DNA from: an uncultured archaeon
Lineage (GTDB): Archaea > Asgardarchaeota > Lokiarchaeia > Sigyniarchaeales > SOKP01
Assembly (NCBI GenBank): GCA_964388035.1
Contig: CAYLZE010000024.1
Coordinates: forward strand, 1 to 52,939
Length of the DNA: 52,939 nt
Reading direction: 5' to 3'
Shown here: positions 32,022-46,248 of the stretch, one piece after another
Numbering within the stretch: position 1 is the stretch's first letter
How the letters are laid out: each line of letters opens with the position of its first letter
The notes under the pieces: model-generated
Database searches by the model: none
What the model saw: only the letters and a program-made list of their open reading frames with translations
Told to the model about the DNA's origin: nothing
Position numbers and translations under genes: made by a program

Positions 32022-34046
32022 CTATTTTTTATATGGACGAAATACTTCTTCCCATTGTTTCTTTTCAAGTATCAAATTTTTTTTCACATCAAATATTATG
32101 GAGCGTTCGCTAATACCCCCCAAATCTTCTCTTTCGATTGAAATTTTCAGAGATTCCAATTCTTTCTCCAATTCACGAAGACTTTCTTGATATATCTCTG
32201 GATGGGTTACTTTCTCTTGACCACCTCCAAAAATAAGGATGGATAAATCGTCTTTTCTTGCACCTTTTTTTAACATCTTATATAAGAGGGTATCGAAAGA
32301 AACTTTCAGCGATTTCAAGCTATTCTGGTTCGTCTTTTCTTGCAAGATATCCGCATAACAAGCTCCAAAAACCTCATGTTTCGAATCCTTCAGAAATAAA
32401 ACCATGCCCACCCTTAAGTCATATATAGCAATCTTGTCGCTTTTAGTTGGTTGGGATTTTAGATCAATAATTGCATGATACCCCAGGGGGACTCGTAATT
32501 CCCCGTAGAGATTGGGTTCCGTAATCTGCAGAGAAACTTGCCTTTTTTGCTTAGTCTTTTTCTTTAAGGAACCTCTTGCATCCTTGCTTTGATCGCCACG
32601 AGAAATCTTTTTTTCACACGACTCCAACTCCATAATACGTGATTCTACTTGTTTTTCCAAATGTTTCAAGAATCTTATCCTTTGATTCGTACTCTCCACT
32701 TTTTTCTCAACTTGAACTTCCTTCACTTCAAGATCCCTTTCCTTGTTTTCTATCGATTCTATGCGTTTTTGAAGTTTGATAATTAGGGCAAGGTACTGAT
32801 TATTTAAATTTTCAATGTTAGAAACACGTTTTTCCAACATGATCACTTTATTTTCGAGAGCCTTGGAGGATTTAAGGGGGGGGAGTGGGATGTAAGTTTC
32901 TTTTATAGGTACATCCTCTGTTCGATTGCTCCCATTGGTCGGGATATCTTCATCATTTCCAGCTTTCACGTGATGAATAGGTTTAACCGGGGTAGATATA
33001 ACATCTTCCTTGTTTGTGGCGAGAGTCTTAGGTTTCTTCAGCTTTCTTGTAGTGGGGGATTTTTCCTGCCTTGTTTCACTCTTCTTCTCAATTATTTGAT
33101 CCTCTTTATTACTCATTCCATTCATGGAAAGTTCCGGAATGGTAAGAGTAATGTGCTTGGTTTTTGTCCCATCTAAGTTGACTGGCATCACGCGACCCTC
33201 TTTTTGAATGATGTTCTTCTTGTTATTCTTCGATTCCCTTTTAACGTAGATTTTATTATTGGCATCTATTAATTTAAAACAACTTTTTGAGTCCCAAATA
33301 ATTTCTGTCTTTCCTAAAACTAAAATACCACCTTCTACCAAATGCGCTTCGAGCATTTTTAATACTTTTTTCCTTGAAAGTTCGTTTAAATATATGATAA
33401 AGTTCCGGCATAAGATAATATCATAGATACATGATTCTGCGTGTCCCTTAGTGAGGTCTTCCGGCAAGAATTTTACATTTTTTTTGATTTTTTCTTTTAA
33501 AGTGTACTCAATAGTATTCTCTTGATTCTTCTTTACAAAATAAGTATCAATATAAATTTGAGGGGTCTCGTGTAACGAATATTCTTTATAAGTAGCCCTT
33601 GAGGCTATATTTATGGCATTTTGGTCAATATCTGAGGCGATTATCATGTAATTGGGAAATTCAGGAGTACTTTGTCTTATTTGATCTAAAAGCATGGCGA
33701 TAGAATAAGGTTCTTCTCCTGAAGCACAAGGACAAGACCACACTTTAATAGTATCCGCCTTATTCGAAAATTTGCGGGTAAGAAGATCCTTGATTTCTTT
33801 AAAAACCTCTTGATTTCTAAAAAAAAAAGAATAATTGACCGTAAATTTATCAATGATCTCCTTGTTTTCTTCCGGATGCAGCCTAATATATTCGAGATAA
33901 GCATGTGGCGTGGAACATCCTAACAAGGTCATGCGTGTTTTTATATTCCTTTCCAAGTAAGAGAGGTGATAACCCTCCAATTCCATACCCGTGGAGAGAG
34001 AAAGAAAATCAACTAATTCTTCCATTGAACCGGAATTAATTTCCAT
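32022..34046 (-). CDS. CheR-type methyltransferase fused via linker and coiled coil to a degenerate CheD-like domain
   Basis: N-terminal TVNYSFFFRN, VWSCPCASGEEPYSIA, ASDID, DIILCRN; C-terminal MLKKGA...IFGGG...EDLGG..R.IIFD. Confidence 0.85.
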   Translation of the reverse strand: MEINSGSMEELVDFLSLSTGMELEGYHLSYLERNIKTRMTLLGCSTPHAYLEYIRLHPEENKEIIDKFTVNYSFFFRNQEVFKEIKDLLTRKFSNKADTIKVWSCPCASGEEPYSIAMLLDQIRQSTPEFPNYMIIASDIDQNAINIASRATYKEYSLHETPQIYIDTYFVKKNQENTIEYTLKEKIKKNVKFLPEDLTKGHAESCIYDIILCRNFIIYLNELSRKKVLKMLEAHLVEGGILVLGKTEIIWDSKSCFKLIDANNKIYVKRESKNNKKNIIQKEGRVMPVNLDGTKTKHITLTIPELSMNGMSNKEDQIIEKKSETRQEKSPTTRKLKKPKTLATNKEDVISTPVKPIHHVKAGNDEDIPTNGSNRTEDVPIKETYIPLPPLKSSKALENKVIMLEKRVSNIENLNNQYLALIIKLQKRIESIENKERDLEVKEVQVEKKVESTNQRIRFLKHLEKQVESRIMELESCEKKISRGDQSKDARGSLKKKTKQKRQVSLQITEPNLYGELRVPLGYHAIIDLKSQPTKSDKIAIYDLRVGMVLFLKDSKHEVFGACYADILQEKTNQNSLKSLKVSFDTLLYKMLKKGARKDDLSILIFGGGQEKVTHPEIYQESLRELEKELESLKISIEREDLGGISERSIIFDVKKNLILEKKQWEEVFRPYKK

Positions 34047-34217: not shown

Positions 34218-34961
34218 CTATAAACAATTATCCAATTTAATGAAGTTCATTTTTAATAGCCTTTTACAACTATTAAACACTTTTTGGGAAGGGATGTTCA
34301 ATTTGTTAGAGATATCTGAAATGGAACGCGTTCCATCGATAAGTTTAAATATTTTCGAGGCAACATTATCGCTTAAATAAAGATTCGGGTTTACGTTTAT
34401 TGATACTTGGATTTTCGGAATCATGGTTTCATATTTAGAGGATTGCATGGTCTTTAGTTTTTGGTCTTTTTCCTCAAGATGCATTTTTTCAGTTAATTGT
34501 AGAGAACTTATATCCTCATGTTCCCTTGAGCTTCTATTTTCTTTTTGCTCTTCTTCGATGCGTTGATTCACGATCCTTTCAAAGGATTTAAATGCCTCTT
34601 GTCGTCCACTCCATTTTAAAATTTGGTCAATATTATACTTGTTCATGAAGGTATTAGACAAGGATCGTAAGGTTCTTTGGACATCATTACCATTCGACTC
34701 TTTATCATGGGTGGCAATGAAAATCAAATTAGGAATACTTTCATGCTTGAAAAAGGATAATTTTAAGTCCGAATTCGAGAGCATTAATTCTTTTATGGAG
34801 CCAAGATTTTCAAAATGATCAGAGAACGAATTTAAAGCAGAGAAGAATCCCGAAACCATGACTAAATCATGATGATTTGAAAAAAGGGGGGTGGAAGCCA
34901 GTTCAGAAGATCTTGAAAAAAGTGGGACTCCATCCTTTATAATTACCACGTCTTTAATCAT
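34218..34961 (-). CDS. longin-like domain + C-terminal winged helix protein
   Basis: IIKDGVPLFS...VSGFFSALNSF...IKEL longin-like pattern; LIDGTRSISDIS...LLKMNFI wHTH. Confidence 0.65.
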   Translation of the reverse strand: MIKDVVIIKDGVPLFSRSSELASTPLFSNHHDLVMVSGFFSALNSFSDHFENLGSIKELMLSNSDLKLSFFKHESIPNLIFIATHDKESNGNDVQRTLRSLSNTFMNKYNIDQILKWSGRQEAFKSFERIVNQRIEEEQKENRSSREHEDISSLQLTEKMHLEEKDQKLKTMQSSKYETMIPKIQVSINVNPNLYLSDNVASKIFKLIDGTRSISDISNKLNIPSQKVFNSCKRLLKMNFIKLDNCL

Positions 34962-39984: not shown

Positions 39985-42900
39985 CTATGAATAGGTTTCT
40001 TTATATTTTTGGATGATTCGATTTAAATTTTTGAGGGCTTTAATGGTGAAGATCATGAGATATTTAGAGTGAAGTTGATCATGTTTTTTAGTTATATTAT
40101 GGGCGAGCTCGTGAGCAGCGATCATTATCCACAAAATAGGAAGGGGAAATTCTCTTTCTAAAGATTCATCCACCATCATGGAATAATTAAATATTAATTG
40201 TCCCCTAAAATTGAAAGCATGTACGGGGGTGTTAAAAAGAGCTACGGATACAGTATCAGAGTTTCCATCCATCACGTCTATGATGAACTCTAATATCATT
40301 TTAAACTTTTTCAGGGATCCTATCTCTATTGACTTTACAGGTTCTTGACCGTAATAGAAAAAATTTCCTTCTTGCTGTAATGTTAGTTCGGGGATGGGAG
40401 GATTTATTTCGAGACCGCCAAATTCCGCGTTAGCAGGAAATTCCATGGTTTTAAACAATATTTTTTTATTTTTTTTGAGATCCTTTTTCAAATTCCTATC
40501 AATTTTATAATAATTGACCAGCTTTCCTTTATCGATATGGAAAGAATCCGCAATTTGTGAGTTAATTTCTTGAATTAACTCATTTTTTGACGGGGGATCC
40601 TCGATTATTATTTTTAATTTATTTTTTGAATAGGGCTTGCTATTTTTCTCACTATTTGCAGGCAATACATGAACTCCAGACCCATCTTCTTTTTTATAAA
40701 ATTCATAACTTGTTGGTTTCCAGGTAAGGGAAGGTTTTTCCCGTTTTGAACTGATCCTTGGCAAATTTTCAAAAAGATCCACGTTTTCTTCTTTGATACT
40801 ATTTTGGATCAATCCTCTATTGGGGGTCTCTCGATCCCGTATAATTAATTGAAGATCAGGAGCATTTAATTTCTTAATTTCGAGTTTATAAGTGGAAAAT
40901 CCTAAATTTGTTAAAGTATCAATTTTATTTTCTGATCCTAATAATTTTTCAATCAAGGGGCTCATGAGTTTGGATTGAGAGATATTGCCTTGAAATAAAA
41001 CGGAGGAGATGGCTCTCGATAAATCGTTTAAGAATTGGAGGGGGGCTTTTTGTTGGATGCCATTAATAATCCCAATGGTTTTGGATTCGGGATCATATTC
41101 CACGGAATTCCCGGAAATGAGAGATTTCTCGCTTTTATAAGAGAGTTCATGGTATATTTCTTCACAAGTGATGTATTGGATGTGCTTGAGTTCATTTTTC
41201 CAATCATTTTTATATTGTAAGCTTGTTTCATTAATAATAACCTCCATGTAAGGAATTAATTCCTTCAATTTGCTCTCGAGTATCCTTATATAATCGGACT
41301 TTTTAATTATGCCCTTAAAAATTATCTTTTTTTTTATTATTTCCGAAACCTTTTTTACACCTAATGCTTCCAGGAACTCCAATACCTTATTATTTACAGT
41401 TGCGATTTTTAAAGCAGAAAATTTTGCTAAATACGACTTCTCATCCGGAATATAAATCGCTTGAGGATATTCAAAAGACTTTAAATCCTCCGTTATCACG
41501 ATTTTTGATTTAGCGAGCAATTGTTTTTTTTTATCACTCAAAAACGGGTATCTATTTCCTAACGTGTTATATAACAGGAATAATCGCGTTGTCTCAATAT
41601 CTTTTTGAGCACAGTATTCCACCAAAAAATCTGCAAGATCGTCCGTAGTTAATGCTGTTTTTAGCCCAATTTTTTTGAAAAAAGTAATGGAATTGGGATA
41701 ATGAGATAATTTTAATAGCTTCTTGCTCTCTCCAAATATCACTTTTGCTTCTTTAGAGCGCGCAATTAGATGGTTTGCTCGCTCGAAATGATTAATCTCG
41801 GGCACATATATTATTTTTTCTAAAGCTAATCGTTTTTTAGCCCGCAAGCTTAATTCGTTAAAATTATTCGATTGCCCTAAGAAGGAATAAATGGTATCAA
41901 GAATCCGCACGTGTTCGGCTTTCTCGGTAGATTGGGCATTCTCTAGTTTTCTTTTTACGACCTCATCAAGTAAATAACGCGCGACATCTTCGGGTGCTGG
42001 CTTTTTACGTAATTGTAATTTATCTGCTAAATCCGTGGGGAGCTTGATCAAGGAAAGGGGCATGGATTCCCCTAATAACTCTTGTATCTCTTTACTTTTA
42101 AGGTAAACCTGATGCGGATATTCAATTCCTTTAGTACTTGGAATGCATTTCTTCTCTTTTAATAGGTTGATTAATGAATTTTTATCTTCCCGTTCCTTAT
42201 TCTGATGAATTGCATCAAATATCAGTTCAAGGCGTTTTAAAACGTGTTTAATTTGTTGGGTTTCATTTTTTTTCACGGATCGAAGATATTCCATTAAAGC
42301 TTGTTCTACCGCATTTTTCAAGTGCTTAATTCTTGGTTCCTTGTTTATTCCAAGTTTTTCGTAAAACTCCATTCCAATTTCGTTTCCTTCCGCATTCACA
42401 TCAAAATACGCAACTGAATTGGCAAAGATTTTCTGATTATATTCTGTTAAGAAATAACAATCGCGTGCTTTTACCTTGTTTCCGTTGAGAGAAGGGATTA
42501 AATCAAGGACTTTAAGTTCTTCCAAATCAGATTTGGATAATTCGTGGCTATTTTCAGAAAGAAACTTTAACACGTCCAAATCAACGATCTCTGCTCCTTT
42601 TTTTTTAATCAGGGAGAGAACATGGGAAGGTGTAAACTTCTTGGAAACCCCTAATATTTCCAGGTACTTTCGACAATTTTTATTTTTTTCAAATGCCTCG
42701 GGAAGAAACACTATTTCTTGTACCAGGGGTTTTGGTACTTCCACTTCATTAAAAAATACTTCTTCTGGGTTCTTAAATCCGCGATTTGTATAAATGATGG
42801 GATGGTTAAAATCATAAAGCCCCCTGTTATAAAAAAATGCATAATACGGGATGATCAAGTCTAGATCTTTTTTAGTAAACTTGCTTTTATTTGAAATAAA

Positions 42901-44559
42901 ATAATTCAGGATCTCATCATCGTCTAATTCTTTAAGGCCTAATTCTTGCAGGTAGATTCGAACTTTCTTATTTTCAATGAACAGATGATGAACCACTCTC
43001 TCTGGTGGATATAATCCAATAGTTTCGGTTTTGGGGAGATATAGATTCCCTGGAATAGCTTTTTGGCCCATTTCATTTGGTAAGGACTCTGCGTGGAGCA
43101 ATTTAGCTAAGTCTTTACCATTTAAACTTTTAGAATGATTTGAAAAGTAAATCCATGCGGCATGTATTTGTTCCAAGTCAATAACTTTATTTCCGCTAGC
43201 AATTTGCTGTATTAAATCACTAATTGTTAATTCCTTGACGCCTAATCTCGCCAATAATTTCTTCAGGTGTTCATTTGGTGGAGGATTTAAAATTTTGATT
43301 GCAGGGACAAAAAAGGGTCGTAATTCTTCCTCAACAACCGCTCCATCAGAGGCTTTAATCCAATTTCCATTAATATCAAGCAAATTGGCATGAAGAAACT
43401 TCTTTATTTTAGTATATATAAATTCCTTGATGTAGGATTCAAAAGGACTATAGGGTGCGTCATAATATAATGTTTTCAAGAGGGCATTAAAATACTCGGA
43501 TTTATTCTCCTCCACTTTTCGAGTAATTTTATCTTTAAAATAAAAGAGCGCTATTTCGAGCATTTCCGAGGCTTTTCTTAGAAGAAAAGAATTGAATTTT
43601 CCTGCCATGCCTTCGGTTGAGAATCCTTTTCTTGAAGTCTCGGGGATAAAATTACTAGATAATACAAACCCTAATCCAAAAGGGGTTTCGGAAGGAAAAA
43701 TTATAAAGATAGGATAATCCAATCTATTAGGATAATCATTTTCTAGAGAAAAAGCGAGATACACCGGTAATTTCGCATTTTCGATAATTTGCGATCCATG
43801 CCTTGCATATTTTTCGGGAACCAGAATGATCCTTTTAAAGACTAACCATTCACCATGATTCTCCTTGGATTTAAACCTTTTCTTTATATTTTCAATAATT
43901 TTTATTTTTAAAACTTCTACCTCCGCCCGTTTATCCTTGATTCTTTCCGAAGCTTCAATAACTTTTTTAACATGATATTCCTTTTTCGGATAGATAAGCT
44001 TAATTTCATTTAAATTAGAAGCAAACAACAGATATGGGAACTTTCGTAAATATTCATTCAATTTATCTAATTTTTTAATATCATCTGATGACAAGCGGGG
44101 ATGAAAGGGAAGATATAACCGGGTTCCATTAAAAAATTCTTCGTGATGCCGATTTATGTAAGGATAAAAATCCTCTTCTTCATGATTCATTACAAATTTC
44201 AATATGGTATTTCCCGAATGATAAATAGGCGTGTCAGAAATCGATAATACAGATAACGCGCCTAAATTCATGGCTCCCGTTTTTTCGAAATCTTTTCCTC
44301 CCAAACAAGGAGTTAATAATCGCTTGATGTCATTAGAATCAAAAGGAGTTCCATCATTTGAAACTTCTATGCCCTTAGGCATCTTTACCTCAAATTGAAT
44401 CATTTTCGCATTTGCATCGTCCGCGTTCTGAATTAATTCCCGAACCCATGTCCGAACGTCAGAATATAGGTTTTCGAAGCGATGGGTGGTCTGATAGGCG
44501 GGATATACTATGCGTTCTCTCTCGAAATTGACATTTTCAAATTCTTTTCCTAATTCCAT
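39985..44559 (-). CDS. sacsin-like GHKL ATPase / internal repeats / HExxH metallopeptidase-like protein
   Basis: RELIQNADDA, SNDGTPF, GTRLYLP at the N-terminus; AHELAHN...H...H at the C-terminus. Confidence 0.8.
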   Translation of the reverse strand: MELGKEFENVNFERERIVYPAYQTTHRFENLYSDVRTWVRELIQNADDANAKMIQFEVKMPKGIEVSNDGTPFDSNDIKRLLTPCLGGKDFEKTGAMNLGALSVLSISDTPIYHSGNTILKFVMNHEEEDFYPYINRHHEEFFNGTRLYLPFHPRLSSDDIKKLDKLNEYLRKFPYLLFASNLNEIKLIYPKKEYHVKKVIEASERIKDKRAEVEVLKIKIIENIKKRFKSKENHGEWLVFKRIILVPEKYARHGSQIIENAKLPVYLAFSLENDYPNRLDYPIFIIFPSETPFGLGFVLSSNFIPETSRKGFSTEGMAGKFNSFLLRKASEMLEIALFYFKDKITRKVEENKSEYFNALLKTLYYDAPYSPFESYIKEFIYTKIKKFLHANLLDINGNWIKASDGAVVEEELRPFFVPAIKILNPPPNEHLKKLLARLGVKELTISDLIQQIASGNKVIDLEQIHAAWIYFSNHSKSLNGKDLAKLLHAESLPNEMGQKAIPGNLYLPKTETIGLYPPERVVHHLFIENKKVRIYLQELGLKELDDDEILNYFISNKSKFTKKDLDLIIPYYAFFYNRGLYDFNHPIIYTNRGFKNPEEVFFNEVEVPKPLVQEIVFLPEAFEKNKNCRKYLEILGVSKKFTPSHVLSLIKKKGAEIVDLDVLKFLSENSHELSKSDLEELKVLDLIPSLNGNKVKARDCYFLTEYNQKIFANSVAYFDVNAEGNEIGMEFYEKLGINKEPRIKHLKNAVEQALMEYLRSVKKNETQQIKHVLKRLELIFDAIHQNKEREDKNSLINLLKEKKCIPSTKGIEYPHQVYLKSKEIQELLGESMPLSLIKLPTDLADKLQLRKKPAPEDVARYLLDEVVKRKLENAQSTEKAEHVRILDTIYSFLGQSNNFNELSLRAKKRLALEKIIYVPEINHFERANHLIARSKEAKVIFGESKKLLKLSHYPNSITFFKKIGLKTALTTDDLADFLVEYCAQKDIETTRLFLLYNTLGNRYPFLSDKKKQLLAKSKIVITEDLKSFEYPQAIYIPDEKSYLAKFSALKIATVNNKVLEFLEALGVKKVSEIIKKKIIFKGIIKKSDYIRILESKLKELIPYMEVIINETSLQYKNDWKNELKHIQYITCEEIYHELSYKSEKSLISGNSVEYDPESKTIGIINGIQQKAPLQFLNDLSRAISSVLFQGNISQSKLMSPLIEKLLGSENKIDTLTNLGFSTYKLEIKKLNAPDLQLIIRDRETPNRGLIQNSIKEENVDLFENLPRISSKREKPSLTWKPTSYEFYKKEDGSGVHVLPANSEKNSKPYSKNKLKIIIEDPPSKNELIQEINSQIADSFHIDKGKLVNYYKIDRNLKKDLKKNKKILFKTMEFPANAEFGGLEINPPIPELTLQQEGNFFYYGQEPVKSIEIGSLKKFKMILEFIIDVMDGNSDTVSVALFNTPVHAFNFRGQLIFNYSMMVDESLEREFPLPILWIMIAAHELAHNITKKHDQLHSKYLMIFTIKALKNLNRIIQKYKETYS

Positions 44560-45699: not shown

Positions 45700-46248
45700 T
45701 CAAATACGGGCATAAAAAAAAGCAGAAAGAGAATTCTTACCAGAAGCAAGAGTCAATTCTTGCTTAAATTCTAATGATTCAAAAAAAGAATTCAATTCAT
45801 ACCTAAAAGAAATTACAATAGCTCTTTTTTTGGCTGTTCTTAATACATGGTTTAAAAAGGCGTGCATGGGAGGATACGAATAAATATAAATGAAGTTATA
45901 TTTGCTTAAATCTTGTTTAAACAAATCTGCTTTTTTAAATTCCATTTTCCGCACGAGTTTTCGGGGTATTTTGCTAGAATTTTTAAACTCCTTTATTTTT
46001 TGCTGAGATAATTGAAAAAAATGATCATCCAGTTCTATTCCCACTGATCTTATCTTATATTTCAAAGCGGCATGGATAACAACTCTCCCGTCCCCCGATC
46101 CTAAATCGATTAACTTTTGTTTAGCCCCTTTTTTCAGACCAAAATCTTGTTCCAAAACACGGAAAATTTTATCGATATAATCCCGATCTGTTTCCAAGTA
46201 AGGAAGCACTAATTTAGAAGAAATGGTGTAAAAATTATTCTCGTTCAT
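45700..46248 (-). CDS. class I SAM-dependent methyltransferase (FAM173/protein-lysine MTase-like)
   Basis: LPYLET, LIDLGSGDGRVV, GIEL, ADLF. Confidence 0.85.
   Translation of the reverse strand: MNENNFYTISSKLVLPYLETDRDYIDKIFRVLEQDFGLKKGAKQKLIDLGSGDGRVVIHAALKYKIRSVGIELDDHFFQLSQQKIKEFKNSSKIPRKLVRKMEFKKADLFKQDLSKYNFIYIYSYPPMHAFLNHVLRTAKKRAIVISFRYELNSFFESLEFKQELTLASGKNSLSAFFYARI

Follow-up and report, generated by a model that had tools for sequence, protein, structure and literature searches.

A CheR methyltransferase fused to a Cys-less CheD-fold domain in a Lokiarchaeia genome and its likely place in a single chemosensory pathway

The CheR protein-glutamate O-methyltransferases of Bacillus subtilis (PDB 5FTW) and Salmonella (1AF7/1BC5) share a two-domain plan, and CheR structures have given functional meaning to the FFR-type Arg, the GEEPYS loop and the CRN..IY motif found in such proteins. 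In enteric bacteria, E. coli among them, an xWxxF pentapeptide serves as the CheR tether, and CheR-TPR proteins of the WspC and FrzF types carry a TPR module; the concept common to both is that an added binding device brings CheR to the receptor or restricts it there. Here we describe a CheR whose added module is instead a seemingly dead enzyme of the same pathway, attached via a long helix, with neither TPR nor pentapeptide. The protein is encoded in 52,939 nucleotides (nt) of DNA from an uncultured archaeon of the Lokiarchaeia (contig CAYLZE010000024.1 of assembly GCA_964388035.1; hereafter the window). Compared with the CheR enzymes above, it presents the same two domains with S-adenosylmethionine (SAM)-binding and FFR motifs, in a genome that also holds a CheB and a methyl-accepting chemotaxis protein (MCP), but it adds about 400 C-terminal residues (a linker, a 90-residue helix and a CheD-fold domain), its gene lies away from the che cluster and its MCP lacks the pentapeptide tether.

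The domain that the archaeal protein has acquired is well described in its free-standing form. The catalytic triad of CheD is Cys27/His44/Thr21 in Thermotoga maritima numbering (PMC7022378). In B. subtilis, CheD contacts CheC via Met101/Phe102, and its binding to receptors and to CheC outweighs its enzymatic activity for chemotaxis (PMC3513319). A literature search for a CheR-CheD fusion, or for Asgard archaea with CheR and CheD, found nothing relevant; Asgard che components are mentioned only in general surveys (PMC9680633, PMC10767990), and public records label the long fusions 'CheR family methyltransferase' or 'hypothetical'. The protein is a known enzyme with a new and conserved dead-enzyme appendage, within a known type of pathway.

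Architecture of the fusion and its CheD-fold domain

The database gene call for the fusion (P0002) begins at Met8 (34023-34025) and gives 667 amino acids (aa); residues are numbered here along the whole open reading frame (ORF; Table 1). Pfam places CheR_N at residues 9-56, CheR at 72-264 (E 1.6e-43) and CheD at 571-657 (37.9 bits, the cut-off being 25 bits), and NCBIfam assignments concur with these, yet lie far under their equivalog cut-offs. In Pfam terms the CheR part corresponds to PF03705 together with PF01739, and the CheD part to PF03975, whose members are CNF1/YfiH-like cysteine hydrolases. In a full-length AlphaFold2 model, for which the input alignment consisted of 11 family members, a confident CheR (8-269) is followed by a disordered stretch (274-393), an uninterrupted helix (393-482), a short disordered joint and an alpha/beta domain (505-674). 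The original prediction, made by reading the window, had proposed a complete CheR with SAM motifs at about residues 8-270, a Lys/Pro/Thr-rich linker of about 120 residues and a coiled coil at about 395-485, and the boundaries in the model are nearly identical. The helix is free of proline, and its sequence is heptad-like over residues 422-484. Alignment of the 11 long fusions indicates that every one has a helix at a similar position, with varying length and sequence, and that the linker sequence is not conserved. Judging from the model and the heptad pattern, the helix is probably a coiled-coil dimeriser or a spacer of about 13 nm.

The CheR part finds its best PDB match in B. subtilis CheR 5FTW (E 1.8e-34), with the whole chain aligned. 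Its motifs FFRN (75-78), WSCPCASGEEPYS (103-115, the GEEPYS SAM loop) and CRNFIIY (213-219) are intact, and the motif residues are invariant across the 11 long family members. On these grounds the domain looks like a functional methyltransferase.

The relationship of the C-terminal domain to CheD is marginal when its single sequence is searched against the PDB by phmmer (E 0.08), and becomes clear at the profile and structure levels. A profile of the 11 family C-terminal domains matches T. maritima CheD (2F9Z_C) with an E-value of 9e-26 over residues 16-147 of 159, and a separate model of the domain, with a predicted local distance difference test (pLDDT) score of 87.5, returns 2F9Z_C as the top Foldseek match (E 3e-10, template modelling (TM) scores of 0.61/0.68), followed by NTAN1 and CNF-type hydrolases. 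The latter two are known structural kin of CheD (PMC7022378). The C-terminal domain, which the original prediction had read as CheD-like over residues 505-674, is therefore a real CheD homologue. Alignment to CheD also upholds the reading of LRVG and CY at the catalytic positions, since the Cys27 column is occupied by Gly547 (LRVG) and the His44 column by Tyr564 (CY); in addition, Ile541 stands in the column of Thr21. In the column of the CheC-contacting Met-Phe pair, most relatives have a hydrophobic residue and then Phe or Tyr, and the window protein presents Glu611-Lys612. The fold-defining residues (GA, GG, GG..R) are retained in the domain and are invariant in the family alignment. Thus, relative to the free-standing CheD of T. 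maritima (2F9Z) or B. subtilis, a receptor glutamine deamidase and partner of CheC, the window domain shares the fold and a clear profile homology but differs in its Gly/Tyr/Ile triad, in its Glu-Lys pair and in being fused to CheR.

When 1.84 billion representatives were searched exhaustively with a profile, 47 close relatives of the CheD-like domain were recovered at E <= 1e-30, below which rank the ordinary CheDs of 150-170 aa. Catalytic columns were tabulated for long fusions, defined as proteins of 600 aa or more and comprising about 25 sequence clusters. The Cys position reads G, S, T or N in 100% of them, and the catalytic His is retained in most, though not all, long fusions other than the window copy. 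Canonical CheDs retain both Cys and His, and LGSC and His are kept in every full-length (175 aa or more) stand-alone Asgard CheD; a few shorter Cys-less stand-alone rows resemble fragments of long fusions. The closest relatives of the fused domain are active-looking stand-alone Asgard CheDs, which are encoded in che clusters and adjoin CheC. In a quick tree the fused domains cluster together, apart from canonical CheDs (Shimodaira-Hasegawa-like approximate likelihood ratio test (SH-aLRT) support of 86; canonical clade 97); a single origin of the fusion is possible. Because the nucleophilic Cys is lost in every long fusion, the domain cannot act as a cysteine deamidase, and its persistence in deep branches, folded but without the Cys, speaks for a role other than catalysis. 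The alignments and tree indicate that the fused domain descends from an active Asgard CheD and is a conserved pseudo-enzyme domain, which functionally is no member of the CheD enzyme family. It offers a clear example of an enzyme, CheD, that became a conserved non-catalytic domain after fusing to a partner from the same pathway.

Genomic context and distribution of the fusion

The metagenome-assembled genome (MAG; G000) to which the window belongs as contig 24 measures 5.5 Mb and is 96.7% complete, with 7.3% estimated contamination. The genes of the window are archaeal, e.g. the archaeal threonyl-tRNA synthetase (ThrRS) editing domain and a CTP-dependent riboflavin kinase, and homologues of the fusion bear Asgard names such as Promethearchaeota and Hermodarchaeota. 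No gene for an MCP, CheA, CheW, CheB or CheY is found in the window, as had been noted originally, and no tRNA genes were found in it. The gene had been taken for an orphan encoding a possible self-contained module, a view that the genome as a whole does not support. Contig 7 carries on one strand a small membrane protein, a 331-aa MCP (the only one of the genome), CheW, CheY, CheA, a 1064-aa DUF11-type protein, a 277-aa protein and a CheW-CheC-CheC fusion; about 16 kb beyond this cluster lies a REC-CheB, adjoining a Roadblock-Ras GTPase and an LCIB-type carbonic anhydrase. What the cluster is without is precisely CheR and CheD. The whole-genome search returned a single CheR match and a single CheD-like match, both of them the fusion gene, and no active CheD was found in it.

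The contig-7 MCP presents a conserved Gln-Gln pair at residues 288-289, and a scan of it for a C-terminal xWxxF pentapeptide found none. In E. coli, deamidation is carried out by CheB, to which the receptor Gln pair would fall here. Since the genome keeps a methylesterase and a Gln-Gln receptor, it needs a methyltransferase, and the fusion gene is the only candidate. Genus g2 keeps a stand-alone set of CheR/CheB/CheD/CheC (in G192 the order is CheW-CheC / CheR / CheB / CheD / CheC / Roadblock-Ras / CheB), which the window genome has lost, so that the fusion must supply all CheR activity in it. The fusion would then fill the CheR gap in the sole chemosensory cluster of the genome and, with CheB, complete the methylation arm.

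Two of the more distant family members, P0011 and P0009 (28-31% identity), encode the CheR-helix-CheD protein within a che cluster, in the order REC-CheB, fusion, LCIB carbonic anhydrase, two to three small genes, MCP, 271-aa gene, CheW, CheY, CheA and DUF11-type gene. The CheB and LCIB of G000 are orthologous to the fusion neighbours in P0009/P0011 (40% and about 60% identity, respectively). The fusion is therefore found inside ordinary che clusters in part of its range, an observation that goes some way against the originally proposed separate module, though the window gene itself is unlinked to the cluster. A different locus, conserved and set among housekeeping genes, houses the fusion in the window, in the P0005 genome and in G192 of genus g2; its flanking genes include NTP transferase, GHMP kinase and the 247-aa gene, then CDP-alcohol transferase, riboflavin kinase, phenylalanyl-tRNA synthetase, translin and ThrRS.

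Co-occurrence was assessed in G000 and 40 other genomes of its family, f1. MCPs were identified in six of these only (G000, G150, G168, G186, G192 and G195), and a long fusion occurs in five of the six (G000, G150, G186, G192 and G195); none of the 35 f1 genomes without an MCP presented an intact long fusion. Two members of genus g2, G132 (94% complete) and G156 (92%), have no MCP and no CheW hit, and in both the fusion is reduced to remnants at the syntenic site, directly after an intact 249-aa neighbour. The deletion end-points differ between the two genomes, which makes two separate events probable. This pattern suggests that the fusion is retained only in genomes with a chemosensory system that it can serve. 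The in-cluster relatives, the co-occurrence with MCPs and the decay where MCP and CheW were not found all speak against the earlier proposal that chemotaxis-adaptation parts had been repurposed for non-chemotactic signalling.

Proposed role and competing explanations

We consider it most likely that the fusion, as the sole CheR of the genome, methylates the contig-7 MCP and is the counterpart of CheB, with the dead CheD as a binding or regulatory module; MCP methylation, docking and dimerisation by the fusion are what we infer from the evidence above. The CheR domain would methylate the single chemoreceptor, opposite to the single CheB methylesterase, and the dead CheD would guide CheR to the receptor array or set its orientation there, by docking on the methylation helices of the receptor or on CheW-CheC bound to the array. 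To bridge the distance, the helix of about 90 residues (about 13 nm) could serve as a spacer that also dimerises, and the disordered linker of 120 residues as a leash. By analogy with B. subtilis, where the binding of CheD matters more than deamidation, a binding role for a dead CheD is plausible, and a binding or tethering module for CheR is our best guess. The CheC protein presumably sits in the array, since CheC is fused to CheW, and this fusion, together with an MCP that lacks xWxxF, would fit a docking role. Complex prediction with the CheD-like domain and the CheC part (205-644) of the contig-7 CheW-CheC protein returned no answer (score 0.00) and weighs neither way. Should docking prove to be what the dead domain does, this would be a way for CheR to reach its receptor that was not known before. 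A more specific version is possible but rather doubtful: the Cys-less CheD and coiled coil would constitute an undescribed CheR-docking device replacing the pentapeptide, and the output of the Asgard pathway would not be the archaellum and might involve small-GTPase or cytoskeleton-type genes. The che cluster travels with GTPase genes. Searches with CheF-arch and Arch_flagellin gave no match in the 96.7%-complete genome, an absence that in a MAG is not proof, and no archaellin was found in five relatives carrying che genes; because archaellin and CheF were not found, understanding the adaptation enzymes is part of learning which process such a bacterial-type sensory pathway governs in the prokaryotes most closely related to eukaryotes.

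Several observations weigh against this proposal. Genera with the fusion often also have stand-alone CheR and CheD; in such genera the fusion need not be the sole source of CheR and might do something else. The fusion is unlinked to the che cluster in the window genome and in at least two other genera, and, given the 7.3% estimated contamination, it is conceivable that contigs 7 and 24 belong to different strains. The MCP co-occurrence involves kin that are not independent and few events, and is no statistical proof. The terminal branch of the window CheD-like domain measures 1.47 in the quick tree, against a median of 0.59, and is second in length only to that of P0007; its CheC-contact pair is Glu-Lys. 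Branch length and Glu-Lys pair are both consistent with relaxed constraint. The window protein is indeed the most degenerate of the family and the only checked copy in which Cys, His and the Met-Phe pair have all been lost. Given the loss of His and of the Met-Phe pair and the long branch, the docking role may have weakened or changed in this genome, and there is a small chance, though one to be taken seriously, that the window lineage is in the course of losing the CheD-like domain.

An explanation that starts from this degeneracy holds that the CheD-like domain, and perhaps the helix, is a functionless evolutionary leftover here and that only the CheR matters, reaching the receptor by diffusion. 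The Thr of the triad is gone along with the other residues just listed, the branch is long, and the fusion is 33% identical to its G192 orthologue, compared with 72% for ThrRS five genes away. Such an outcome is nonetheless unlikely, as the ORF runs uninterrupted over the 170 residues of the domain, the fold-defining residues are kept, the domain model is confident and the Cys-less domain has been kept in the roughly 25 long-fusion clusters across deep branches, which argues for selection and a non-catalytic role. The self-contained module envisaged in the original prediction, operating outside chemotaxis with the dead CheD holding the substrate and the coiled coil as a receptor-mimic substrate, would agree with a window devoid of che genes, with a housekeeping neighbourhood whose synteny is conserved in three genera and with a helix rich in Glu, Gln and Lys. 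It is nevertheless the least probable reading, and a very improbable one, in view of a full che cluster that wants only CheR and CheD, of relatives with the fusion inside che clusters and of its truncation in genomes without MCP or CheW hits. The receptor-mimic component fares no better. A scan of the fusion helix for receptor-type methylation motifs found none; relaxed matches fall in the SAM-binding loop (all checked copies but one) and, in the window's CheD-like domain only, at GGGQEKVT (607). Because the helix has no conserved [EQ][EQ] site of the methylation type and its sequence is poorly conserved, a built-in substrate mimic is unlikely.

The fusion might instead methylate a non-receptor target together with the 247-aa Asgard-specific protein encoded immediately upstream, and would then be tied not to the MCP but to the regulation of GTPases or the cytoskeleton. 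The upstream gene occupies that position in the window, in G192, G132 and G156 and in the P0005 genome, the che cluster itself carries a Roadblock-Ras GTPase, and neither archaellin nor CheF was found. We regard this as improbable, because the presence of the fusion tracks that of the MCP, in P0009/P0011 the fusion adjoins cheB without the 247-aa gene beside it, and the 249-aa gene remains whole in genomes with a decayed fusion, so that the two are not obligate partners and the neighbour probably does not depend on the fusion functionally. Methylation of the contig-7 MCP by the fusion, with its CheD-fold domain in a binding role, accordingly remains our preferred account.

Related fusions and neighbouring features

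A second kind of CheR-CheD fusion was observed in P0122-P0125, P0127 and P0160 (loci L018 and L019). The short fusions of Promethearchaeota (P0122-P0125 and P0127) are 403-476 aa long and have no coiled coil. They share domain order and CheD-domain clade with the long fusions but keep the CheD Cys and His intact, whereas their CheR is degenerate (FFRN reads FFFN, FFKN or FLTN, and the SAM loop is altered), so that by sequence they show a pattern of degeneration reciprocal to that of the long fusions. The genes of the two short fusions that were checked do not lie in che clusters. Among the more distant matches of the long fusion are many CheR-TPR proteins. Adaptation enzymes are likewise fused in CheB-CheR sensor kinases (CheB-CheR-PAS-HATPase), which occur in the same archaeal family and are widespread in bacteria. 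These are wired to a histidine kinase and occur without MCP hits, whereas the long CheR-CheD fusion tracks MCPs. CheR-bearing frames of 1100-1340 aa were also observed in G030, G083, G135, G138, G159, G174, G177, G183 and G186. The genomes with CheB-CheR or other CheR-bearing long frames have, all but G186, no MCP hit, which points to a use of CheB and CheR outside receptor arrays.

The CheW-CheC-CheC protein (P0130, P0273-P0391) occurs in many Asgard groups, the best 120 of 209 matches being 59-74% identical over the CheC part. Full-length identity in a sample of 21 is 57-62%, compared with 28-46% between genera for the CheR-CheD fusion; from these identities, the fusion appears to evolve fast and the CheW-CheC protein to be remarkably conserved.

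Neighbours 42-44% identical to the upstream 247-aa protein are encoded at the same position in G192, G132 and G156, and the P0005 genome has a 246-aa gene without Pfam hits at the equivalent site, as judged by comparison of position and not by alignment. An Atlas search with the 247-aa protein returned only unnamed Asgard clusters.

Table 1. Coordinates of the fusion, its parts and other features. Plain positions refer to the window; positions with an L prefix refer to the locus named.
Feature	Position	Strand	Details
Whole ORF: CheR, linker, long helix and pseudo-CheD	32022..34046	minus	674 aa + stop
CheR methyltransferase, residues 8-270: N-terminal all-alpha and SAM-binding domains	33237..34025	minus	Pfam, PDB match, motifs
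Lys/Pro/Thr-rich linker, predicted disordered, residues 274-392	32871..33227	minus	pLDDT below 50, composition
Single long helix with heptad pattern, residues 393-482	32601..32870	minus	AlphaFold2 helix, pLDDT 76-86
CheD-fold putative pseudo-deamidase domain, residues 505-674	32025..32534	minus	Pfam, profile, Foldseek, catalytic columns
Gly547 at catalytic Cys position	32406-32408	minus	Alignment to CheD
Tyr564 at catalytic His position	32355-32357	minus	Alignment to CheD
Glu611-Lys612 at CheC-contact Met-Phe position	32211-32216	minus	Alignment to CheD
247-aa gene, Asgard-only family	34218..34961	minus	171 nt from fusion; no Pfam family
Chemosensory cluster, G000 contig 7	L010:3761-14557 and L009:6168-9886	minus (L010)	
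Fusion remnant, G132	L023:2459-3587		278-aa CheR ORF, stop, then last 81 residues of CheD-like domain
Fusion remnant, G156	L024:4082-4489		Last 119 residues only, 82% identical to G192 fusion
CheB-CheR-PAS-PAS-HATPase protein, G071	L022:2776-6495		1239 aa
ORF with faint Sacsin-domain match	39985-44559	minus	1524 aa
DOT1-like methyltransferase	45700-46248	minus	182 aa
Intein-bearing A-type ATPase catalytic subunit of a relative	L011:158-3631		

Two further genes of the window are eukaryote-flavoured, namely an ORF with a faint Sacsin-domain match at its N-terminus and a DOT1-like methyltransferase. The A-type ATPase catalytic subunit of a relative holds an intein with a LAGLIDADG endonuclease, which the orthologue on contig 7 of G000 (608 aa) is without.

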